Below are positions 4,156 through 25,681 of a stretch of DNA of 28,274 nucleotides, piece after piece; position 1 is the stretch's first letter, and every line of letters begins with the position of its first letter. Where the stretch lies: IMG/VR virus record IMGVR_UViG_3300006143_000348; one strand, given 5' to 3'. The position numbers and the translations under genes were made by a program. The stretch is from a virus (taxonomy: Duplodnaviria; Heunggongvirae; Uroviricota; Caudoviricetes). The notes below the pieces were generated by a model, which saw only the letters and a program-made list of their open reading frames with translations, was not told the DNA's origin and did no database searches.

Positions 4156-7100
4156 TTACCAGTTGCTGAGTCCTTTTGATAGGCTGGTGTTTCCATCCAC
4201 GCGGTCTGAAGTCATCGAATGAATCATCTTCTCAAACTTCCCATCCCTGCGCATCTGGTTCGCAAAGTCATTGTAGTCAGACACGTGGTCAATAGGGATG
4301 TTTACCTCATAGGTAATATTGCTGGCGGGTGCCTGGGCTGGGCTTGACGGAGCGTCTATTTTTCCAATAGAGCCGATGATGTCGGGTACTGGGTTCTCTG
4401 CGAAGATATTCGTCAGCGGGCTGGTTCCGTCGGCGATACGCTGCAAAGCGTCCTTCAGCTCGATGAAGTTTGCGGTGTCCTTGGAGTTCAGCACAAGCTC
4501 CGGCTCTCCGGGCGTACCGTCAAGCTGCGCAAGCCCGGTGTAATCCACGAGTCCGCCCTTCTTGAACTTGTTGTAGTGGTACGGCGCAAGGGATTTGATT
4601 CCGTGGTATTTACCAGGCCATGTGCCGTTCTGTACATACCCATCCTTGCCCATTTTATTAACGATAGATTTGACGCGGCTGGTGTCAAACCCTTTCGCTT
4701 TCAGCCTTTTCGACTGCGTATCCCCGGTGCCCCATCCGTAGCCTCCGTTCCAGATAGCAAGTGCTACACCGTGGTTCTCTTTTTCAGTGCGTTTCTTTTT
4801 CTTCTCAGTGGAAGAGGGCTTTTTAGGCTTGCTATCGTTTAACGTGGTTGCAGTTGGTATATTGCCGAAGGAACCTAAAATGGGGTGTTTTGTACTTTGC
4901 GTGGTAACTACGGCTGTTATGTTTCCAGAAGAGCTGGAGCCTGAGTTAGAGTTTTTATTAGGGTCATCCTTTTTGTCTTTGCCGGAAGAGCCGGAGCCGT
5001 TCCCGTCAGTGTTGTTTGCGGTATCGCCAGCGGCAGCTAACAGGGCTACGTAGTTAGCGATGCTGTTCAAGACGCTATTGACAGAGGTCAGGGAGCTGCT
5101 GAAGGAATCGCCATATTTCATGATGATAGAGGCGGTGTTTTCACTAGACATCCAGATATTCTGCATGTTTTCGGATAGGGTATACCCAACTTTCTCGCTT
5201 TCAGCAGTGAGTGTAGTGCTGATGGAATCCGCATTTGCGTTGATTCTGTCAATCATGTCTGAGAGCAGCACGTCGGTATTGTCCAGACGCTGGTTTAGAA
5301 CCTCCTCATATTCGGTGTAAAGGCTGTCGAGCAACTTCTTCTGTTCAGTGATGTAGTTCTCGTATTGCGTTTCTTCTAAGTCAGCTTCCGCTTCTTCAAG
5401 GCTGACCTGGAGTCTTTGTATGACTGCACGGTTTTCTTCGGATGTGTCACCAGCGTATGCGGCAAGCTGTTTCCGCAGCTTGGAGATTTCGGATGTCTGG
5501 CTTGACACTTTCTTCTGGTAGTCGTACAGGTCTTTCGCGCTGTCGAGTGCATCCGTGTAGGTGTCAATCAGTTTTTGCAGGGCATCAAGCTCGATGTTGA
5601 TTCCTTCCTCGACCATATCCCGGATGGCTTTTTTCTCTCCGTTGGCAGCAAGGATGGATTCACGCTGGGCTTCAATCAGCTCCTTACGCCTGTCCAGGAG
5701 TTTTGTGTTGTAAGGGTCTTCTGCGATTTCCTTATCCAGCGCCATAATTTCCTTTGCGTACCTGTCGGCTTGAGCCATATACACGTTATAGTTCTGGCCG
5801 TGCATACCCATAGTTGCCATACCGGTGTCTGTGAGCTGCCCGGTATCGTCATATAGCTTGGAGTTTTCCATGAGGCTGATTAGGAATTCAGCTTCTTCGG
5901 CAACCTGCCCTATCTGTTCCTGGAGGTAGTCGAAATGCCCCCATTTGACCTCCCGGATGCTATTTCCGAGCTTGATGATTTCTATCCCGGATTCCTGGAT
6001 GGCTTCTTTGACTGCATTGATTTCCTGCTGCATTTCGTACCATGCCTCGGAACCCTTTTTGATTCTGCCGGAATTTACAGCTTCATTCATTTTCTTGGTC
6101 AGGGAGTCAAGTTCTTTCTCACGGAGCTTAATGTTCTTCCGCTCGACATCCTGAAGCGCTTCATAATATTTTGTGCTGGAGAGGTAGCCGCGTTCCTCGA
6201 TTTCAGAGATATTGTTGTTGTATGTCGTGGTGAGGTGTTCCAGGGTTGAAAGTTTGTTCTCGTAATGCGTTGCCACGTCATTGAACTTGTTCTGGTACAG
6301 CTCAGCCATGCTTTCACGCAGCTCCTGTATAGCGTCCCGGCACTCCATTGCCTTTTCATACCATTTCTGGTAATTCTCTATCTTCTCGGCGGTCTTTTCA
6401 TCGTATTTCGTGATGTCTATTGTGCCTTTGCGGACTTTCTTCTTCAGGTCTCCGGACAGGGAAACTGATTTGGCTTCCTTGCGGTACCGGTGGTATCCTT
6501 TCTTCTGTATGGACAGTTCAGCGGCCATTTTGGACAGCTCTTTGTTCGTTGCAGCCAGCCTTTTAGACAAGCCTTTGAATGGGCTTGTGGCAGTTGTGGC
6601 AAGCCGGTCGATTGCCCGCTCAATCCGGCTTATGGCGATTTCAATCCAGTCAATGATTTTGGAATTGTCCTTCTTATCTTTCTTCTTATCAGATTTTGAA
6701 TCAGAATTCGAAGAGCCCTTGTTGGAGGACGACGCCCCCGGGGAGTGCGTGCCGACGCCGGAGTTCGGCCTGCGTGAACCGCCAGTACCATTTTCATATG
6801 CATTGAGGTTCAGCGTATTGAACGCCGTCCCGTCTGCAAGTGCGCGTTTCCCGTGCCCGCCTCCTGCTGTAACCCGTCCGGATTTTAGGAGTTCCTTTGT
6901 CTGTTCGGCGGAGAAGATGATATCGCCCTTCTTGAGCTGTGCGACGTGTGCGCCGCCAGGGAGCGGATACCACTTTCCGTCACGGACGATGGATTCTGTC
7001 CCCAGCTCATTGACGAGCGCATCCTCATCATCCATCAGAGACCAGTTCTGCCCTGATGCGTATGCATTAACAGGATAGATGTGGTTTTTAGTAGAGCGGA

Positions 7101-10100
7101 AGGCAGTGCCGTCAGCATGGGCTGTTCCGGACACCTCCGCATTCTTGCTTGCTTCGGCCTTTTTTACAGTCTTTTCTACAGTCGTGACAGTTATGGACTT
7201 ATCATTCAGCTTATCCAGATTCTCCTTGATAATTTGAATCTTGGGTGATGCATTATCAACGGCGTCAATGGTGAAGGACTTGTCGTCGACATTGTTGGCA
7301 TTTACTTTGTCTACAGCGCTGTCAGCCTCGGAAGTGTCGGGCGAGAACCCCACAGGGATAGAGATGCTTTCAGGGCTGTCTTTCCATTGGTTTACGATGC
7401 CTTCCACATTGCCTACGTTCTCAGGGCGGATTCCTACTGCGACCTGGACGCTTTGCGGGAGGTTAGCTAATTGCTCCGCAAGGGATGTGATTTCGGACAT
7501 CTGGACATCTACAGAGAAGTAAAGCTCGCTGGAGGCCTGCATCTGTGCAATGATTAAGGAGGCATGGCTCAGGCCGCCGTCTGTAGACATGTTGAGACGG
7601 AAATAGTAGTCCCGCTCACATTTCGCAATTAACTCATCGAGGGCTGCAGCTGCTTTTGGGTCTGTCTCTGCATTAATTTTTATCCGTTCGTTTTTAAGTG
7701 TATTGATGTAGGACTTCAAATCTCCCAGCGGAGCTGTAGATGTATCGAAGGACAAGTCAATGTTTTTCGATACCTTCCCGGATTCCTGAAGGTCTTCGAG
7801 GGCTTCTTTTGCCTTATTAACCTGCCCGGTGAAGTCCAGGTCGCTAAGGTCGATAGCCATGCCGGAGTCAATCAGTGCGCGTTCAAACAGCTCTACAGCT
7901 TCCGTGCTGATGCCGAATGCGTCAGCGACTTCCTGCAGCTTGTCCCCATTGAAATCGAATTCGTATTTCCCATCTTCGTTGAGGTGGGCAAAGGAGTCCC
8001 CAAGTTTCAGGTTGACGTCATCAAGGAAATCAAACAGGCCGTCCGACACAAGGTTATTATCTTCGTCAAACTTCCAGTAGTCCATGATGCTGTGGCTTGT
8101 GCCGTCAATGGTCTGCGTCAGTTTCTCAAAGTCCGCTGCGGCATCCCCTGTCCTCTGTTCGGCAGACAGAAGGAGGTCAAGGTAGGCGTTCAGGGACTCA
8201 TCCCCATACCAGCCCTGCTCCAAGGTTTTCTGCATCTCTTCATAACTGCTTCCGATGCTTTCATAGGAGTCACGTTCTTTCCCACCGGATTTGGCAGTCA
8301 GCCAGGCGTTGTAGGCGGATGCCAGCCCCTCGTACTGGGATTTAAGTAGCTGTGTCTGCATCAGCTCATTTTCCAGCGCAGACGTGTCGCTGCCTTTCTT
8401 GCGCTCATCATAAATCTGTTCTTGCAGGTACTGGATTTTATCTGCGAAATTTTCAAGTTCCTTCGCATCCAGTTCTTTATTCAGCTTCTTGAGTTCATCT
8501 GAGTTCAGGTGTACCCCATTCGCGGTTTCTTCAAACAGGCGGTAAGGGTTATATCCTTCCAGGTCGCCATAAGCCTCCTGAAGCTTCTGGATTTCTTCTG
8601 TTGTCAGCCCTGTTGCGGACTTTGAGTTCGACAGGGCTGACTGCAAAGTTCCCTGCAGGGTCTTGAAGTTCTCGATACGCTGTGCCAGGGCTTGAGTCCC
8701 GGCTGCGGCTCGCGTAGTTTTGTCGTAAATGTCCCCAGTGATAATCCCAAGGTTAAGAAGTGAGCTGACAAGGAAATCCGTTGAGACCCCTGCATTATCG
8801 GCGCATTCGCCCAATTCACTAATGGCGGTGCCAACTTCTGAGGTATCGGGGTTCAGGAGCAATGCCTGGAAGTCGATGTCGTCTAATTTTGCATCTTTTA
8901 TTATCTGGAGGTATCTGGCTATACCTTCTGATGCAAGCACACCGCTTTTCTGGGCTTCATCACCCAAAGCGGCAGCTTCTTCTAATTTACTTTTGAAGTC
9001 AAAGTTTGCAATAGCTTCTGTGTTTAAAGCACCTAAAGCATTTTTGAATTGGGTAGAGAACTTGCCTAAGCCTTCGCTGTCTTCCAGCAGACCCTGGATG
9101 CTATTATCTACGGAAGAAAACTCTTCGGCGGCGGCTGATATTTCGGTGGTGTCGCCCATAGCAAGGGCAGTATTATACCTTTCAATCGCTTTCGTATAGT
9201 CATCCATCCAGTCGGCAGCGGACTGGGCTTTGTTTTTGGCATCAGTGTATATACCCATGTCCCCGGTTACGGCTGCTGCTTTGGATTGTTCGTACAGACC
9301 GCCATCTTCCGCAGTAATTTTGTTTACTTCTTCGAGGCCTTCCTTGACGGAATCGAAAATAGGCTTGAGAAATGGGGTGTCCTCAATCTCCCCAGGAATT
9401 TGGCGCAATTCCGTCATTAAGTCATTTAATGCATTTTCAGCCTGCGTGGCATCTGCGTTGAGGTAGAGGTATAACCCTCCGTCTGTCCCGTCTACCGTGG
9501 TAATCACGTCGCCATATTTATCTTTGATTTTCTGGATAGCTGCCTGGATGGAGTCTGAACCTTCAGCTTCCTTATAGAAAAAGCCGATAGGATACTCCCG
9601 GACTTCTTCCATCCTTCTGGTAGCTTCATCAATCCCCTCCTGGTTTTCATTCAGGAATTTGTTTGCTTTCTCTTGGTTGATTTGATTAAGTAACCCTATC
9701 TGTTCCTGCAAAGAGCCGTTTACAAGGTCGATGCCTTCTACTTGTCGCCCATACGACTCAGAGAGTTTCTCCTGGATAGACAGCAGTTCAGATTTGGCGT
9801 TATATGCTTCTTCCTCTGATAAAGTTCCAGAAGCAAGCTGTGCCCGTAATTCTGAGATTCTGTCCGTGTAAGACTGGATGGAATTGCTAGATTCTTCCCA
9901 AGCCTTCCCAGCTTCTTTTGCTGCATCTACCTTTTGCTGGAATTCTTTGTTTTGCTTATTCTGTATTAAGAAAAAGGCAGCAAGTGCGGCGCTGACACCA
10001 GCAATTATTAAAGCTAATGGTGAAAATGCGGAAGCGAAGGCCTTTGCCCCGGCCGCCAACCTTCCTAACATACCAGCCCCGTTTGCTCCGGCTCTGGACA

Positions 10101-12000
10101 TATCGGCAATGGCATTGGTGATGGCACCGGTGATACGTGGGAAAGATTTAGTTAACGCCTGTTTGAAGAAGCTGAGTTTAGCAAATCCTTTTGCGTCTTT
10201 TGAGAGCGTAGCAAACTGCTTGATTACTTTGCCAATACCTAGCGCTCCAAGTGAAATCCCTAAAGCACCTACGGAGTCTACAACAGCATCAATGGCTTCG
10301 ACCAGTCCTTTCAAGACATCCACGCCGACTTTCATTGAGCTGGAGCTGAAGAAGTCATAGGACAATTCCTCGAAGCTTGCTTTCAACTGGTCGACGTGCG
10401 CAGACGTTGTTTCCATGTAGGTATTGTTTGCTGTCATGGCGGTTCCGGCAGAGTCCATAGCGCTTTCGTATGCGCCCATCGCATCCTTGATGTTTGTGAT
10501 GGTGGACATGATACCAGAAGTGTTCCTGGTTCCGCCAAGGATTTCAGCTACACGGGAGCGAGCCATATCGCTTTCCATTCCATCCCACGCCTGCGCAAGC
10601 TGTACGAAGATGTCATACATGTCTTTGTACGACTTCTCATCTTTCATGATATCTACGCCCGACAGGTCTTGGATTTCTTTTCGGTATTTTGACAGGCCAT
10701 CTGCGAGGCCTTCTGTCGATTCTCCCATCTCTTCAAGTTCTGTCGTAGCCCCACGGATTCTTGCGCTTACGGTCTTCCACATTGTACCGGTTGTCTGTGC
10801 ATTCTGGAGGGATGCATTGGTTGCTGCAAACAGGGCGGCGCTCTTTTCAAAGCTTGTCCCGGATGCGGCAAGGGCAGCGCCACCGCGCTGGAATGCAGCC
10901 ATCAGCTCTTCGGCGGAGATGGCATACTCCTGGCCGACTTTTACAAGCACATCAGAAATGTGTTCTGCGTCTGCTACGTCGATATTATAGCCTTTTATGA
11001 TAGATGTAAGACCAGTAGTCGCGGTGCCAGTGTCTACATTTGCTACATTGGACATGATGTTTGCATACTTGGCAAGCTCTGAAGCGTCTCCCAGGTTGTA
11101 TCCCAGGCGGCTGAATGTCTCGATAGAAGAGGATACATCGCTGATTTTCTGGCCTAGTTCCTGTGCCATGCTTGTAGCTTTAGCAAAGAATTCTTCCATT
11201 TGGGAATCCGTTGCGCCGGTTACAATCTTTATCTGTGTCATGGAATCTTCAATTTCCATGTAGGTGGCTACCATTTTCTTGCAAGTCTGTATGGCGGTCG
11301 TTATGATACGGGTAACCCCGAACCATGTTGCAAACTTTTTGCCGATGCTGCTGATTTTATCCCCGAAGCTTTGGTAGTTTTTACCGGCATCTTTAATGCG
11401 GTTAGATGCGTCAGTTACAGTGGATTTAATGTTGTTGAATCCTCTATTGAACTGTTCAACAGATAAAGTACCGTTTTGTAGCTGTCTCTGGAGGGCTTCC
11501 AAAGCTGCGATTTGGCTTTTTAGGTTTTCATAAGCCCCTCCAGTATCCCCATTTTTTGCAGCCGACCATTTTCCTACATTATTTCTGACCTGCTTTAATA
11601 GCGTATTTATTTTGCTGAGGGCAGTGTAGTATTCTTTCGCGTCTGCTGTCAGCATCTTTTGTTCGGCTGCGGCATTTCGGGTAGCGTTAGCAGCTTCGGT
11701 TGCCGCACTTGTGTTTTGTCTTCTTGCCTGCGTGTTGGCATTAATGGCAGCCGTATTGCTGTTTACATCGGATGTATTTGCGCCCATAGAGCCAGCATTT
11801 CCAGATGTAGCTCCAGATGCGGCTGCACGGTGCAGTTCCTCAATCTGCTGCCGCATTGCGCTGAGGGATGAATCATCAAGTTGTACTTTTATTTTTGGGG
11901 GATTGGCGTTGATACTGGAAACCAAGGATTGGATACCGGCTTGGAATTCTGCGAAACTAAGGGCAATATCCACGCCAACTGTCAGTAAAATATCAGCCAT
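4156..12000 (-). CDS. Tail tape measure protein, 2614 aa
   Basis: TP901-type tape-measure core (IEDSMTQIKIVTGATDSQMEEFFAKATSMAQELG...FSRLGY), long helical stretches, hydrophobic segments (LALIIAGVSAALAAFFLI) and a C-terminal GGLVDYTG...GEPELVL motif typical of TMPs. It precedes the Dit-like gene. Confidence 0.93.
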   Translation of the reverse strand: MADILLTVGVDIALSFAEFQAGIQSLVSSINANPPKIKVQLDDSSLSAMRQQIEELHRAAASGATSGNAGSMGANTSDVNSNTAAINANTQARRQNTSAATEAANATRNAAAEQKMLTADAKEYYTALSKINTLLKQVRNNVGKWSAAKNGDTGGAYENLKSQIAALEALQRQLQNGTLSVEQFNRGFNNIKSTVTDASNRIKDAGKNYQSFGDKISSIGKKFATWFGVTRIITTAIQTCKKMVATYMEIEDSMTQIKIVTGATDSQMEEFFAKATSMAQELGQKISDVSSSIETFSRLGYNLGDASELAKYANIMSNVANVDTGTATTGLTSIIKGYNIDVADAEHISDVLVKVGQEYAISAEELMAAFQRGGAALAASGTSFEKSAALFAATNASLQNAQTTGTMWKTVSARIRGATTELEEMGESTEGLADGLSKYRKEIQDLSGVDIMKDEKSYKDMYDIFVQLAQAWDGMESDMARSRVAEILGGTRNTSGIMSTITNIKDAMGAYESAMDSAGTAMTANNTYMETTSAHVDQLKASFEELSYDFFSSSSMKVGVDVLKGLVEAIDAVVDSVGALGISLGALGIGKVIKQFATLSKDAKGFAKLSFFKQALTKSFPRITGAITNAIADMSRAGANGAGMLGRLAAGAKAFASAFSPLALIIAGVSAALAAFFLIQNKQNKEFQQKVDAAKEAGKAWEESSNSIQSYTDRISELRAQLASGTLSEEEAYNAKSELLSIQEKLSESYGRQVEGIDLVNGSLQEQIGLLNQINQEKANKFLNENQEGIDEATRRMEEVREYPIGFFYKEAEGSDSIQAAIQKIKDKYGDVITTVDGTDGGLYLYLNADATQAENALNDLMTELRQIPGEIEDTPFLKPIFDSVKEGLEEVNKITAEDGGLYEQSKAAAVTGDMGIYTDAKNKAQSAADWMDDYTKAIERYNTALAMGDTTEISAAAEEFSSVDNSIQGLLEDSEGLGKFSTQFKNALGALNTEAIANFDFKSKLEEAAALGDEAQKSGVLASEGIARYLQIIKDAKLDDIDFQALLLNPDTSEVGTAISELGECADNAGVSTDFLVSSLLNLGIITGDIYDKTTRAAAGTQALAQRIENFKTLQGTLQSALSNSKSATGLTTEEIQKLQEAYGDLEGYNPYRLFEETANGVHLNSDELKKLNKELDAKELENFADKIQYLQEQIYDERKKGSDTSALENELMQTQLLKSQYEGLASAYNAWLTAKSGGKERDSYESIGSSYEEMQKTLEQGWYGDESLNAYLDLLLSAEQRTGDAAADFEKLTQTIDGTSHSIMDYWKFDEDNNLVSDGLFDFLDDVNLKLGDSFAHLNEDGKYEFDFNGDKLQEVADAFGISTEAVELFERALIDSGMAIDLSDLDFTGQVNKAKEALEDLQESGKVSKNIDLSFDTSTAPLGDLKSYINTLKNERIKINAETDPKAAAALDELIAKCERDYYFRLNMSTDGGLSHASLIIAQMQASSELYFSVDVQMSEITSLAEQLANLPQSVQVAVGIRPENVGNVEGIVNQWKDSPESISIPVGFSPDTSEADSAVDKVNANNVDDKSFTIDAVDNASPKIQIIKENLDKLNDKSITVTTVEKTVKKAEASKNAEVSGTAHADGTAFRSTKNHIYPVNAYASGQNWSLMDDEDALVNELGTESIVRDGKWYPLPGGAHVAQLKKGDIIFSAEQTKELLKSGRVTAGGGHGKRALADGTAFNTLNLNAYENGTGGSRRPNSGVGTHSPGASSSNKGSSNSDSKSDKKKDKKDNSKIIDWIEIAISRIERAIDRLATTATSPFKGLSKRLAATNKELSKMAAELSIQKKGYHRYRKEAKSVSLSGDLKKKVRKGTIDITKYDEKTAEKIENYQKWYEKAMECRDAIQELRESMAELYQNKFNDVATHYENKLSTLEHLTTTYNNNISEIEERGYLSSTKYYEALQDVERKNIKLREKELDSLTKKMNEAVNSGRIKKGSEAWYEMQQEINAVKEAIQESGIEIIKLGNSIREVKWGHFDYLQEQIGQVAEEAEFLISLMENSKLYDDTGQLTDTGMATMGMHGQNYNVYMAQADRYAKEIMALDKEIAEDPYNTKLLDRRKELIEAQRESILAANGEKKAIRDMVEEGINIELDALQKLIDTYTDALDSAKDLYDYQKKVSSQTSEISKLRKQLAAYAGDTSEENRAVIQRLQVSLEEAEADLEETQYENYITEQKKLLDSLYTEYEEVLNQRLDNTDVLLSDMIDRINANADSISTTLTAESEKVGYTLSENMQNIWMSSENTASIIMKYGDSFSSSLTSVNSVLNSIANYVALLAAAGDTANNTDGNGSGSSGKDKKDDPNKNSNSGSSSSGNITAVVTTQSTKHPILGSFGNIPTATTLNDSKPKKPSSTEKKKKRTEKENHGVALAIWNGGYGWGTGDTQSKRLKAKGFDTSRVKSIVNKMGKDGYVQNGTWPGKYHGIKSLAPYHYNKFKKGGLVDYTGLAQLDGTPGEPELVLNSKDTANFIELKDALQRIADGTSPLTNIFAENPVPDIIGSIGKIDAPSSPAQAPASNITYEVNIPIDHVSDYNDFANQMRRDGKFEKMIHSMTSDRVDGNTSLSKGLSNW

Positions 12001-16131: not shown

Positions 16132-16896
16132 TTATAACCACACCTTCTTTCTCTTATCAGAAGTGGAGGTATTATCTTCGTGTACAGTGTCGGATGCATC
16201 CGCTTCCGTGCGTGGGAAATGTTTGTAGTAGTCCGCAATGCCGAGTTCTATGTTATCGTCGTCGGTCGACACTACTTCCTGCAGTACGAATGAATAGACG
16301 CCTGCGCCGTTATACGTCTTTCCGACCTTCAAAGGTTTCGTCAGGAGATATGCGGCTTTCTCAGGCGCATCCGGGTCGTCGATGAGGAAACGCCGGTTCC
16401 GGCTGAATTTGACAGTATGCTGGTTCCGGCTGATGGTCATGGCGATACGGGCATCGCCCCTTGTGACGATGAAGTTTTTATCTTCATACTCTCCAGTGAG
16501 GTACTTTGTACCGTCTTCAATGACACACCATTGTTCATGGATGATATCGTGTTCGTCTACCCATTTAAGCAGATGGTTGCACTGGAGAAGTTTTACCCGT
16601 GTATATAGCTCATTATTGGCATCCTTTTCGGTAATCAGCCAGCGGTTATCTTCCCATTCGACAAGCCCGCCGCAGGTGAAATCCTCACCCGGGAGTGAAC
16701 ACATGGTCTTTTCATTGAGGTTGTCGGAATTAATGACGGCGACAGCCCGTGGAAGCCCGTCTATGAGGACGTCATGGTATGACAGGGAATCCTTCAGCTT
16801 ATGGTTGAGCATCCTGCTTTCCCTGAGCAATGCCGCATTCCGCTTTGTGTTTCCGTGGGTCTCCATGCGGCTTGCGTATTTATCCCAGACATTCAC
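16132..16896 (-). CDS. Hypothetical virion protein, 254 aa (possible head-closure protein)
   Basis: GTG start with SD GAGGAGG, GTGA overlap with the upstream stop, beta-rich, in the neck region. Confidence 0.65.
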   Translation of the reverse strand: MNVWDKYASRMETHGNTKRNAALLRESRMLNHKLKDSLSYHDVLIDGLPRAVAVINSDNLNEKTMCSLPGEDFTCGGLVEWEDNRWLITEKDANNELYTRVKLLQCNHLLKWVDEHDIIHEQWCVIEDGTKYLTGEYEDKNFIVTRGDARIAMTISRNQHTVKFSRNRRFLIDDPDAPEKAAYLLTKPLKVGKTYNGAGVYSFVLQEVVSTDDDNIELGIADYYKHFPRTEADASDTVHEDNTSTSDKRKKVWL

Positions 16897-18346: not shown

Positions 18347-19363
18347 TTACGCAGTCATCTCATAACGGCCGATGCCGGAATTACCGCCAGCAAGGATGAT
18401 GCCCATGCCGTATTTCTCCCCATAGAGATACTCCTGGGTGAAATCCGCATTCTGCATTGGGTCGCCCATCAGGACAATCGGGTTGCCTTCGTAAACAACC
18501 TTAATCGGCTTGTCGTCTCCGGCGATGATGGTCAGCACGTCGTCGTCCATGACGAACTCTGTAGAGCCGACCTTATGGCGCTGCGGAGCAGCTACAACCG
18601 GGGTTCCGTAGAACTTTCCGTAGTAACCCATGTTGTACAGGTCATCCTTAGCGCCATCGCTTACGATGGAAGATTTCAGGTTACGCAGGGCTTTCTTTGT
18701 GCCGATGATGGTAGCCTGCTTCCCGCCTGCGGCAGCTTCCACATGGGAGATGAGGTCAAGCAGCTCATCCTCGTCGTATGCCCCGGCTGTCGGGAAATAT
18801 GTAGTCCCGCCAAACTGGGCTGCTGTTGCGCCAGTCCACAGGGTATAGACATCATTCAGCAGCTTCTGCCGGAAGGATTCAGCTACCTTATTGATGAAAA
18901 CGTTGAAATCAACGCGTCCTGCAAGCACACGGTTGAGTTCCTCGTAGATTCTTACTACTTTCAGGGTAGTCGGGATGGAAGTCTCCGTTACCCCGCCAAG
19001 TCTCTGGCGTCTGATACCCTGTGTTCCGTCCGCAGCTTCAGCTACAACGAATAGGTTTTTGTCTTCAACAAGGAAGAGGTTTTTGTCGCCCTCGTTCACG
19101 TTGCGGAAATCAACCAGCGCGTTAAAATACTCATCGCCCTGAAGTCCCTCGGCTACAGTATTGCTCAGCGTCTCTTCAAGCAGCGCAAACAGCCCGTTGC
19201 ATTTCCCGTCACGGATTTTCTTATAATCCAGGACAGTGCTCCCTCCGTTTGCTTCTACCAGAGCCTGCCTAAGCAGCTCCTGGGACTGGCCTACGGAATA
19301 TTTCTCGACCCTGCCCTTGTAGCCGTCAATAGCTACTTTTACAATATCTTTCATGTCAGACAT
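18347..19363 (-). CDS. Major capsid protein, 338 aa
   Basis: Strong SD AAGGAGG, HK97-like size, a late P-domain-like segment (GKFYGTPVVAAPQ), position after the protease/scaffold and decoration genes, and a downstream terminator. Confidence 0.8.
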   Translation of the reverse strand: MSDMKDIVKVAIDGYKGRVEKYSVGQSQELLRQALVEANGGSTVLDYKKIRDGKCNGLFALLEETLSNTVAEGLQGDEYFNALVDFRNVNEGDKNLFLVEDKNLFVVAEAADGTQGIRRQRLGGVTETSIPTTLKVVRIYEELNRVLAGRVDFNVFINKVAESFRQKLLNDVYTLWTGATAAQFGGTTYFPTAGAYDEDELLDLISHVEAAAGGKQATIIGTKKALRNLKSSIVSDGAKDDLYNMGYYGKFYGTPVVAAPQRHKVGSTEFVMDDDVLTIIAGDDKPIKVVYEGNPIVLMGDPMQNADFTQEYLYGEKYGMGIILAGGNSGIGRYEMTA

Positions 19364-21709: not shown

Positions 21710-23597
21710 TTATCCCCAATCGTCTTTCTGCTCGGAAGATTGCTCTCCACTGTCTGTCAATTCTGTTCCGTCGCTTACTGGACGGCCGCCTTCATCTGTT
21801 GGGGCATCGCTGTCTTCAGAGGGAGTGCTTACCTGGGTAGAGCTTATAATAGGCTTGAACATGTCCTGCAGGCTCATAATCTGTGTCTCCAGGAAGCTCA
21901 TGCTGTCAAGTTCAGACTGCCCAAGCCCCTGTGACGCAGCATACATGGATATTGTCGGAAGCCCATAGGACGCCGCTTTCAGGTATGCATCACCAAGTTC
22001 CTTTCGGTTGAACGGGCTGCAGTCCAGGAATGTGACCTTGAAGTTCTTGCCATATCCCTGCGCCTGGATGAACCGGTTCACCACGTCTTCAATGCTCTTT
22101 ACAATACCAAATGTCAGCGCCTGGTCTGCTTTGATGGAGAGCATCAGCGCATTAGCGGATGCTTTTTCATTGTTGAACAGCAGGGATGATACCCCGGCCG
22201 CTGTGAAGATGTTCTGTTCTGCGTCCACGATGGTATCGGTGTCACCAGTGTTCGAACGCTCGAAACTGATTTTGTCAATATCCATCGGAGTCAGTACGGA
22301 GCCGATTTCCTCTGGGAGCACGGAGTCCAGGTTCATCCAGAACTCCTTTGCCTTATCGTAATCTATGCCCCAGTTTCCATCGTCGTCCATAGGAAGCTTC
22401 ATGGATAGCATGGCATAGTTCTCAAGGGCTGTTTTTGTGAGTTTTAATTGTTTATCCATTTTGTTTGGAATAGTTATTTGCATAACTTTCGGGTTCGCTT
22501 TCCCGTCCAGTGTCATTTACACTTCTCCGTCTTTCGACAGAGTGCAGACTATATCTTCACCATGCCGCAGTATTGCGGTTTAGGGTTCCCCATTTCGGGG
22601 CGCTTGCCCCTACTCCCTTGCGGGATAGTCGTTGAACCTTCCTCTGTTCAAGGCTTGGCTGCTGATTGCCCATTATAAAAAGAGCAGGGGATTTAACCTC
22701 GCTCCTATACAATCAATTTTTTCTGTTTTCACAACCGTCACGCCTGCACTTGTTTCATTGCTACGTTGTGGTCTGATTGTCTTTAGGGGTTTCCAGCAAT
22801 TAAAGGAATTGTTGCTATACGCCGTTTCCAACGTACCGACCTATATTTAAGTCCTCAAGGTCATACAGTTCCCTCAAAATGCCTGCAAATGGCGGGAGGG
22901 AGTATGCCAGGATGTCGTTGTTCACTTTCACCGCGAATGAAGTAGGTGAGTCAAGCTCTATCCATCTGGAGGTACGCTGTTTCTGGTATACGGCGTACTT
23001 CGTTTTAAACTCCTGGGGATAGAACTCCAACATCGCGCTGTGTGAGTCAAAGTATGAAAAATCGAAGGTTACGTTCAGCACGTTCCCTTCGATAGTAGAA
23101 ATGGCACAGTAATCGCTTGGCAGCTGCTGTATGGTAATGCTGTCATTTGTGACCCACATCGTCCCATAGAACGTATCTTCACGAAGGCAGACAGTAAGTA
23201 TTTCCGGAAACTGTGTCTTAATGTTCATAGCGGACAGTGCGTTTAAGACTTTCCGGTAATTGCGGCTGATAGTCTTCGGGCTGATGCTTTTCGGGTCTAT
23301 CTTATGCGGCGATACCACATAGGACAAATCGGACAATCCAGTAAAATATTGGATTATCCGGCGGAAATGGGCGGATGCCCCATATATGTATGTGACAGCA
23401 TTACGCAGCTGTTTCTCATACTGGTAAGGGTTGGACAGGTAAGTTGTGATATCGTCCTTAGAATATAAGGAGAATGTAGGGGTTGTGGTATTATTATTCA
23501 AATCCCTGGTAATCAGCCGGTTCAGGGCTGCAAATTTACCTGATATGCCAACCATTTTTGAGATGTCAATGCCATCCCATGTTCTTTTTCCCGCCAT
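21710..23597 (-). CDS. Portal protein, spliced: join(23597..22850, 22455..21710), 497 aa
   Basis: The two track ORFs join in frame when the group I intron is removed: GAG GAC T|AT AAA gives ...LYDLED-Y-KQLKLTKTALENY.... Exons are 748 + 746 nt = 498 codons. It lies directly after the terminase and has an acidic C-terminal tail. Confidence 0.85.
22456..22849 (-). ncRNA. Group I self-splicing intron (IA2-like, no ORF), 394 nt, in the portal gene
   Basis: The 5' exon ends in U and P1 is GACU/GGUC with a U.G pair. P = AAUUGCUGGAAAC, Q = AAUCAGCAGCC, R = GUUCAACGACUA, S = AAGAUAUAGUC. Two extra stems lie after the 5' strand of P7 (UCCC-GCAA-GGGA and GGGGC-AAGC-GCCCC). P9 is CUCUGUC-GAAA-GACGGAG and the intron ends in G. 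Confidence 0.93.
22545..22672. repeat. Copy 1 of a 128-nt direct repeat (intron catalytic core); copy 2 is at 24620..24747
   Basis: Ungapped manual alignment shows 123/128 identity at an offset of 2075 nt. Confidence 0.95.
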
Positions 23598-25681
23598 TTA
23601 GTAAACTCACCGCCTTTCTCTTATAATGTGGTGGTTTGATGATGAACATGTCAGCGCTGCCGATTCCGGCATTGTGGCGTCTGTTCATTTTGGTTTCTAT
23701 CTGTGTTGCGACATAGTAGTTGTATGAAAGGCTGGAATACCGGTCTTTCCTCATGCCAGATTTTTCCGATATCTTAATTTTGCCTCCAGACTCTTCGTGC
23801 TGGAGCTTTGTCAGTTCGTCAATCAGGAGCGTCGTTTGGATATACGGGAGCTGCATCTGCATCTTCTCGGAAGGAGAGAGGGAGCTGTATCCCCGGATTT
23901 CACCAAGGTATTCCTCAGCGTCGTATTCCGTAGCCAGAAGCCTGATACGGCCGCTCCTGAATGCTTCCCTTAACAGGAACGCGCAGTCAGAATTAAATTG
24001 GGCGCTAGCTTTGATTGACCAGATAACCTTGTCCGCCCCTGCTACGGCGCACCGTGATGCCATTTCTGCGTTGTTGCAGCATGAGAGCGCAGGATATATC
24101 TCCCCAGTCTCAGAATCCACGATTTCCCTGGCCAGGCAGTCATAGACGCCGATTCCAAGCCCGTTTGTATCCAGGACGATGTAATCGCATTCGAATTCAT
24201 CATATAGTTTCCGGATATATAATGCCTGGTCATCCGTGCGTAACCCTTCGCATGTGTCGGCATAGACAAGGCCGCTGGAATACCTTCCTGCCTTTGTAGG
24301 CACCATCTGGTTGATGAAGAGGGCGGTAGCATCGTTCTGGTTCTTCCTGCTGGACATAAGTGCGATGTCAGCGGAAAGAATCCGTATCTCCCCGTTATTT
24401 TTCACCGGGATGCGGACAAGCTGTGAGTTGTTTAACTTTGAAGCTAGTCTGCCCGGAAGCATCGGGTACTTAATTTTCCTGTTCTTTGAGATAGTGTTGT
24501 AATCAAAAAAAGAGCCGTCGGCATTTCCATACCACAGCGCTTCGTATTCCCAGTAATGTTTATATGAGGCCGCTAACCTCATCTGGCGTTTTTGATGCCC
24601 TTTGGCTTTCACCAAAGCTCAGACTATATCTTCACCATGCCGCAGTATTGCGGTTTAGGGTTCCCCATTTCGATGCGCTTGCATCTACTCCCTTGCGGGA
24701 TAGTCGTTGAACCTTCCTCTGTTCGAGGCTTGGCTGCTGATTGCCCAATCAAAGCCATTTTCGAGCCATCACACTTATGCATATTTCATCATTATGTTGT
24801 GGCTGGTTTTGCTGTAAGGGGTTCCCAGCAATTAAAGGAATGCTAACATATGGTTTCCCATATGCTCAGACTAATTTAATCTGGAATTTAATCTCATTGA
24901 AATCTGTCTCGGCCATCTCATCTGCAACGGTATCCCTGTCAAGGAGTCCTTCTGTGACTGAAAGCTGGTAGGGGAGGCCGCATACAAACTGATGCTTCGT
25001 ATCGTCCAGCATGAACCTGCAGGTGTCCGTGCATTTGGTATAGCTCCAATGGTCAACGAAATACGCAGAGGACAGGTACATGGTCTTATTTTTCTCTTTG
25101 TTATACTCAGCTAACTTTTCTGCTTTTGTAAGCTTTGAGTATTCAGGCATACGCCTTTGGGTAAGGAATTTACGCAGGATTGTATCTATGACGTCTTTGG
25201 ATATCATGCGGAACTCATCGAGGAGCAGGAGAGTGGCACGGTTGCCACGGGCTGTGTCCGACGCGGTTACAACTTTGATATAGGATGTATTTTTAAATAC
25301 AATCTGTGCATTGGTTCCGTTTATTTTCGTTTCTTTTTCATCAATTTCGGCGGCTAGCTCCGGCGAAATCGGCTTTAGTTCGAGGATGATTTTCTCCAGA
25401 ATGTTGATACTTTGCCCGCGTGTGCCGGATGCGATGCATATCTTTGTACCAGGGTATAAAATACACCTGATTACACAGAAGACTGCGCTCAGGAATGATT
25501 TACCGATACCACGGCAGCCTATGAACACAGTGGTCGAAGACCAGTTCATCATCATTATCAGGATTTTCTGGAAGACGTGAAGTTCAAGATGAAGGTAATC
25601 CTTCGCTAGACGGTGCGGGTTTGCGCGGTAATATGCGCACCAGAGTGCCGCACCATGCAGAACGCGTTCAGTTCTGTTCAT
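23566..25681 (-). CDS. terL: Terminase large subunit, spliced: join(25681..24879, 24550..23566), 595 aa
   Basis: Exon 1 has Walker A (GCRGIGKS), Walker B (LLLLDE) and a YLSSA coupling-motif region. Exon 2 has the RNase H-like nuclease acidic residues (ILSADIA, LDTNGLG, KDRYSS). Splicing gives TTC CAG AT|G GAA TAC = FQ-M-EYEALW. Exons are 803 + 985 nt = 596 codons. Confidence 0.92.
24551..24878 (-). ncRNA. Group I self-splicing intron (IA2-like, no ORF), 328 nt, in terL
   Basis: P1 is CAGAU/GUCUG with a U.G pair and P2 is GCAUAUGG-GAAA-CCAUAUGU. The P/Q/R/S elements match the portal intron. P9 is CUUUGGU-GAAA-GCCAAAG, the intron ends in G, and removal restores the frame. Confidence 0.94.
24620..24747. 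repeat. Copy 2 of the 128-nt intron-core repeat
   Basis: It differs from copy 1 only at GGGG/GATG, CCCC/CATC and one A/G. Confidence 0.95.

Follow-up and report, generated by a model that had tools for sequence, protein, structure and literature searches.

A group I intron in the portal gene of an SPbeta-like gut phage that probably lost its homing endonuclease

Our analysis of the window, the whole 28,274-nucleotide stretch studied here, revealed a portal gene that is interrupted within codon Tyr250 by a 394-nt group I intron (22456..22849, minus strand). We propose that this intron is functional, ORF-less and of the IA2 type, and that it very probably spread by homing and then lost its GIY-YIG gene. 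The window comprises the virion module of a 98%-complete, 119-kb virus record, with its genes on the minus strand.

Once the 394 nt are taken out, the exons of 748 and 746 nt form a single 497-aa frame that reads YDLED-Y-KQLK across the junction. Exon 1 (22850..23597, minus strand) contributes codons 1-249 and the first base of Tyr250, and exon 2 (21710..22455, minus strand) the remainder of that codon through to the stop. The two halves match the portal profile phrog_2739 over positions 37-258 (E 1.2e-46) and 258-497 (E 1.9e-51), respectively, meeting at profile position 258; frame and profile together bear out an earlier note, made from the sequence alone, that had this excision rebuild a 497-aa portal. 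The position of the gene after terL fits a portal, and the order of the two genes is that of SPbeta-type phages. Cultured homologues belong to SPbeta-like phages, at 30-40% identity; the phrog_2739 portals of Sundance, PBC2, the Lactococcus 949 group and phiCD211, likewise 30-40% identical, lie in the same terL-portal order, and in the cultured records listed the two halves abut, with no intron at this site. Those Atlas clusters nearest to an intron-less homologue (L010) that carry a Pfam name are all portals, and a PDB sequence search with the portal gave no match. Judged by these comparisons, the interrupted host gene is an SPbeta-type portal (phrog_2739) in a phage of the SPbeta-like gut group. 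Upstream of the packaging genes, the window also encodes an HU/IHF-like DNA-binding protein (PF00216; 26667-27167).

Among 42 related viral loci spanning the site, 40 are intron-free, and their alignment to the window portal at the junction is gapless, so that a hidden mini-intron need not be invoked. Comparison with such homologues, a check named in the earlier note, gives E-D-Y-K in 36 and E-D-Y-R in four of the 40 uninterrupted loci, a consistent E-D-Y-[KR] reading that fixes both intron boundaries. The note also expected gene callers to report two broken genes, and two ORFs are indeed callable here; in the corrected annotation these two broken ORFs become one essential portal gene. Alternative U/G boundaries that preserve the frame were rejected, as they fail P1, P9.0 or the D-Y-K alignment.

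Against the Rfam group I model RF00028, positions 22525-22859 score 83 bits (E 5.8e-20; gathering score 50). A group I intron at precisely 22456-22849 had been claimed in the note, which gave no strand and also pointed to Rfam models as a check, and both the coordinates and the model agree. The fold has a z-score of -3.6, with none of 100 shuffles equally stable. In P1 (22838..22853), exon GACU pairs with the internal guide GGUC, placing a U.G wobble at the 5' splice site in all eight portal-site alleles, and the P2 hairpin (22818..22835) changes on both sides in 7/7 pairs. The P3 pseudoknot (22586..22808, formed by 22803-22808 with 22586-22591) encloses P4-P6a and P7.1/P7.2, with 100% of cells paired and three compensatory pairs. 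P7 (22547..22631, formed by 22626-22630 with 22547-22551) contains the guanosine-binding pair G22630-C22547 and a bulged C22631, invariant in 9/9 introns, and itself encloses P7.1 (22614-22625), P7.2 (22597-22610) and P8. The P5 extension includes a 44-nt stretch (22682..22725) that is missing from the other portal-site alleles. Downstream of the core, the dinucleotide CA at 22543-22544 pairs with UG at 22457-22458 to form P9.0 (22457..22544), which adjoins the terminal G at 22456; P9 (22525-22542), P9.1 (22509-22523) and P9.2 (22490-22505) together occupy 22490..22542, and a fourth hairpin, AGUUAU-GCAA-AUAACU, lies at 22472..22487. All of these elements are on the minus strand. An RNA that remained unspliced would hit a stop 11 codons into the intron.

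Over nine aligned introns, 92.8% of the cells for 72 named pairs are able to pair, a level reached by none of 500 shuffles and by no slid control (at most 44%), and 35 of the 72 pairs change on both sides. Because the window sequence served as the template for the structure, the covariation counts carry more weight than the percentage paired. P3, P4, P6 and P7 are 100% paired in the nine introns, the base of P8 lying outside the scoring, and compensatory changes occur in P3, P6, P6a and P8a. The note's statement that the core elements are visible thus stands, as P3, P4, P6, P7 and the guanosine-binding pair are present and the helices covary. P9.0 appears as CA/UG, CG/CG, UA/UA or CU/AG and is paired in 7/8 alleles; this covariation independently supports the terminal G at 22456 as the 3' splice site. 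P10 is weak and unconserved, 2-3 bp at best (AUA/UAU in the window, 1-2 bp in others). The marks of class IA2, namely P7.1 plus P7.2 and a domain 9 with P9.0, P9.1 and P9.2 (PMC4227781), are all found in the portal intron, in a subgroup that is itself heterogeneous (PMC11878797). Sequence and covariation confirm 22456-22849 as a group I intron, IA2-type by anatomy. A match to the LOOT RNA (E 0.11) was dismissed as a chance overlap.

By searching with the protein and scanning IMG/VR for the junction pattern, we recovered seven further distinct alleles at exactly the portal site. The eight distinct alleles, including that of the window, comprise five with an endonuclease gene and three that are ORF-less; an assembly artefact was rejected, since the seven others come from unrelated samples. 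The endonuclease alleles (L048/L002, L062, L069, L074 and L075) measure 1015-1047 nt and encode a GIY-YIG, NUMOD3 and I-HmuI-like product of ~215 aa, with GIY-YIG and NUMOD3 recognized by Pfam in 5/5, the start being ambiguous in L062, L069 and L075. These proteins share 55-59% mutual identity and at most 44% with the other GIY-YIG genes found. Besides the window copy, L058 (344 nt) and L082 (332 nt) are ORF-less. The window intron contains no homing endonuclease ORF, and a GIY-YIG search of the phage's 98%-complete genome found none, with a working positive control. Junction-pattern scans of metagenome and GTDB collections gave no portal loci among the matches listed, the pattern being so loose that this is uninformative on absence. 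The GIY-YIG frame of L075 (540-1193) has no ATG upstream of the catalytic motif (a stop, then ATA) and may be degenerating or using a rare start. The L048 phage carries, in addition to its intron-coded nuclease, a second GIY-YIG gene (6859-7866, minus strand; 335 aa) that is apparently free-standing and directly downstream of the portal. Two other candidates were set aside: in Lactobacillus phages Ld17 and LL-Ku, GIY-YIG genes occupy the interval between terL and portal but are free-standing, and the two-piece portal match of Lactococcus phage AM12 reflects a downstream partial duplicate and not an intron.

What is the origin of the fourth hairpin? In all five nuclease alleles, P9.2 is directly followed by an arm of the form UUAUGCAAAU, which base-pairs with the 3' end of the nuclease gene, its final codons and stop, in a stem of 12-14 bp (-13.7 to -16.8 kcal/mol) that encloses 661-692 nt. 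In related nuclease introns at other sites (L103, L427, L429, L430), the arm changes together with the end of the gene. The window intron retains the arm, lacks the gene and goes directly into a tail resembling the one after the stop in L062/L069; its sequence can be explained by a deletion at a 2-nt AT overlap that leaves a 6-bp stem with a GCAA tetraloop. In the other ORF-less introns of the family P9.2 leads straight to the 3' tail, and the fourth hairpin is absent from those inspected (terL, L058, L082, L105, L147, L162, L013, L046). Since arm and post-stop tail are kept without the gene, and ORF-less relatives have no such hairpin, the fourth hairpin is very probably the scar of endonuclease loss, and from the sequence pattern we infer the direction to be loss rather than a later gain of the nuclease. 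A scan for a further allele with the same scar found none. The earlier note had described an extended P9 region missing from the terL intron, which is correct for the fourth hairpin but not for P9, P9.1 and P9.2. These three are also present in the terL intron, so that only the fourth hairpin is special; that intron lacks only this hairpin and the 44-nt P5 insert.

The terL intron (24551..24878, minus strand) is ORF-less and 328 nt long, matches RF00028 over 24600-24887 with 81 bits, and leaves a spliced TerL of 595 aa. From Q to S, its core (24621-24747) is identical to that of the portal intron (22546-22672) at 122/127 positions, and all five differences keep pairing; among the portal-site cognates, the highest identity across roughly this segment is 114/126. 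A third group I intron of the genome (L046:1493-1875; genome C1 43901-44283, plus strand; 82.5 bits) interrupts a small ORF two codons ahead of its stop, where splicing would change V-K-A-D-stop to V-K-A-D-N-A-stop. The P5 extension of the portal intron matches this third intron and two capsid introns of L013 at 77-79/107 positions, versus 43-48/107 for the portal cognates, mostly because of the 44-nt insert, a similar form of which is shared by those introns and absent from the cognates. The 3' end follows the portal lineage. Segment exchange among co-resident introns is probably the simplest reading of this mosaic. Other loci vary at terL as well: roughly where the window has its terL intron, L013 carries a 617-nt insertion of a different kind, and introns or insertions interrupt terL elsewhere in L069, L148, L151 and L171.

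The distribution of the intron is consistent with homing. In a portal protein tree of 20 rows, from which the partial L062 was left out, monophyly of the intron-bearing portals is rejected (p-AU 5e-64), and the sister of the window portal is that of the nuclease-bearing L074 (support 95/90). Repeated intron loss could also produce such a patchy distribution. Synonymous flanking bases are shared among the intron-bearing alleles, with C at -2 in 8/8 versus 4/13, A at +8 in 7/8 versus 2/13, and A at +14 in 7/8 versus 1/13. Synonymous identity among them peaks at 0.77 over codons 0 to +4, versus about 0.35-0.45 further out, and is 0.57 over the same codons in intron-less alleles. The common C at -2 is explained by P1, which requires it. 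The other shared bases fit the short co-conversion tracts expected of homing, but they could instead reflect pairing needs or codon bias and, because related alleles are not independent, are only supportive.

Based on these data, the GCAA hairpin might still be viewed the other way round, as the ancestral empty state of a real, splicing intron into whose loop the GIY-YIG gene entered later and elsewhere. GCAA is a canonical GNRA loop, mobile introns are generally held to have arisen when endonuclease genes invaded peripheral loops (PMC3984707), and two further ORF-less alleles exist at the portal site (L058, L082). We nevertheless regard this order of events as unlikely: GCAAAU is exactly the segment that pairs with the final F-A-stop codons of the endonuclease in the cognates, the arm tracks the end of the gene in other family members, ORF-less relatives have no fourth hairpin, and the nearest portal relative (L074) carries the nuclease.

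Two further readings concern what the intron does, and both appear far less probable. Introns in both adjacent packaging genes might suggest that the intron serves as a switch, a role that has been proposed for phage introns (PMC11878797); the absence of an intron from 40 of the 42 loci spanning the site, its patchy occupancy there and an Rfam scan in which no ligand-sensing element was seen make this very improbable. It is even harder to credit that the RNA stays unspliced and that the portal is made as two chains, of 260 aa and of 268 aa from an ATG at 22516, or that the phage is defective. Two ORFs are callable, and GGAG stands 8 nt upstream of the internal ATG, but that ATG falls inside the P9.1 hairpin and is not conserved among the other alleles, the catalytic core is intact and invariant, with all differences from the terL core keeping pairing, and the frame is exactly restored in eight independent alleles.

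In conjunction with established group I chemistry, we favor the following model for the ORF-less, formerly mobile intron. Guanosine bound at the P7 G-C pair would attack the U.G-marked 5' site in P1, and exon 1 would then attack after the terminal G held by P9.0, yielding an mRNA for the 497-aa portal. Spread by homing would have been driven by a GIY-YIG endonuclease encoded in a terminal stem-loop after P9.2. In the window copy, a deletion would have removed some 660-690 nt with the nuclease gene, so that a GCAA tetraloop now caps the remaining stem base, and parts were probably exchanged with other introns of the family, giving a core like that of the terL intron and a P5 like that of the third-intron/capsid type. 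Such a copy would be a passive passenger, dependent for any further movement on nuclease from a co-infecting phage. Most likely, the homing cycle has run its course here, and what remains is an ordinary mobile intron stripped of its mobility gene.

Related introns extend well beyond the portal. The exact core pattern has matches in 92 IMG/VR stretches; among the upstream exons are those of major head proteins, DNA polymerases, reductases, terminases and tape measure proteins, and within the phage clade introns also occur in terL, in a putative capsid gene and in further genes of the virion. L013 has three group I introns (9340-11300) in its homologue of window ORF 18347-19363 (putative major capsid, phrog_4088), a gene that in L105, L146 and L166 has one each at residue 289. 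The homologue of window ORF 16132-16896 is interrupted near residues 131-140 in L103 (4764-5756), L151 (2296-3323) and L162 (4131-4484), a second site at which family introns occur both with and without a nuclease gene. A related, unannotated group I intron with a GIY-YIG gene lies between two hypothetical ORFs of Enterocloster phage CB457P1 (L421:2957-4376), a cultured phage that could possibly serve as a laboratory model.

How does the portal intron compare with known systems? Class IA2 introns of phages and Firmicutes, such as those of T4 td, nrdB and sunY and the IStron ribozyme (PMC4227781), likewise have P7.1, P7.2, an extended domain 9, a 5' U.G and a terminal G; the portal intron differs in its long P5 extension and its host gene. 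In IStrons, the insertion-sequence cargo occupies the place where the portal cognates hold their ORF, downstream of P9.2 in an AU-rich terminal stem (PMC4227781), but that cargo is TnpA/TnpB (IS200/IS605 or IS607), whereas the cognates carry GIY-YIG plus NUMOD and the window copy neither; an IStron identity was rejected, as no TnpA/TnpB ORF follows P9.2. The group IA introns nrdF IVS6/I-BthII and nrdE IVS3/I-BanI of the Bacillus cereus group (PMC2248736) offer a published parallel, with a GIY-YIG gene complete in a few strains and deleted in others, and in both cases a screen of relatives brought the missing gene to light. In the Bacillus introns, the ORF is located within P6a, the hosts are nrdE and nrdF, and experiments demonstrated both splicing and cleavage; in the portal intron, the ORF would have lain after P9.2, its loss is complete, and the case is known from sequence.

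The usual hosts of phage introns are genes of DNA metabolism and the terminase (PMC11878797). Virion genes with introns include Twort orf142 (tail tube), a capsid gene of mycobacteriophage LittleE and a tail gene of BAKA (PMC11878797), together with the major capsid gene of crAss-like phages (PMC7886860) and genes of the Jug phages (PMC12880540). As here, the published examples are group I introns, often ORF-less, that split late structural or packaging genes and are mis-called as two ORFs. The Jug paper goes no further than to call portals fragmented and/or divergent (PMC12880540); a group I intron in a portal gene is mentioned in none of these works, nor did our literature search, which covered part of the PMC11878797 supplement, turn up such a case. 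The note's impression that a portal is an unfamiliar host is upheld to that extent, and is tempered by the capsid and terminase introns of relatives and the published capsid and tail hosts.

The type of element and its mechanism are textbook, and the host gene is rarely reported. The portal is added to the usual hosts of phage introns, which fits introns following conserved essential sites over one metabolic class. A single site displays several states of the endonuclease cycle, empty, nuclease-bearing, scarred and traceless, and with five putative GIY-YIG enzymes and a predictable target the cycle should be easy to test there. In a broader reading, to which we give even chances, the portals of SPbeta-like gut phages host an undescribed homing system, in which a distinct GIY-YIG clade cuts intron-less portals and the window copy is an end-stage derivative rebuilt by domain swapping, with ends of the portal lineage, a terL-type core and a P5 of the third-intron/capsid type. 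If this is true, the portal-cutting GIY-YIG clade could serve against co-infecting relatives.
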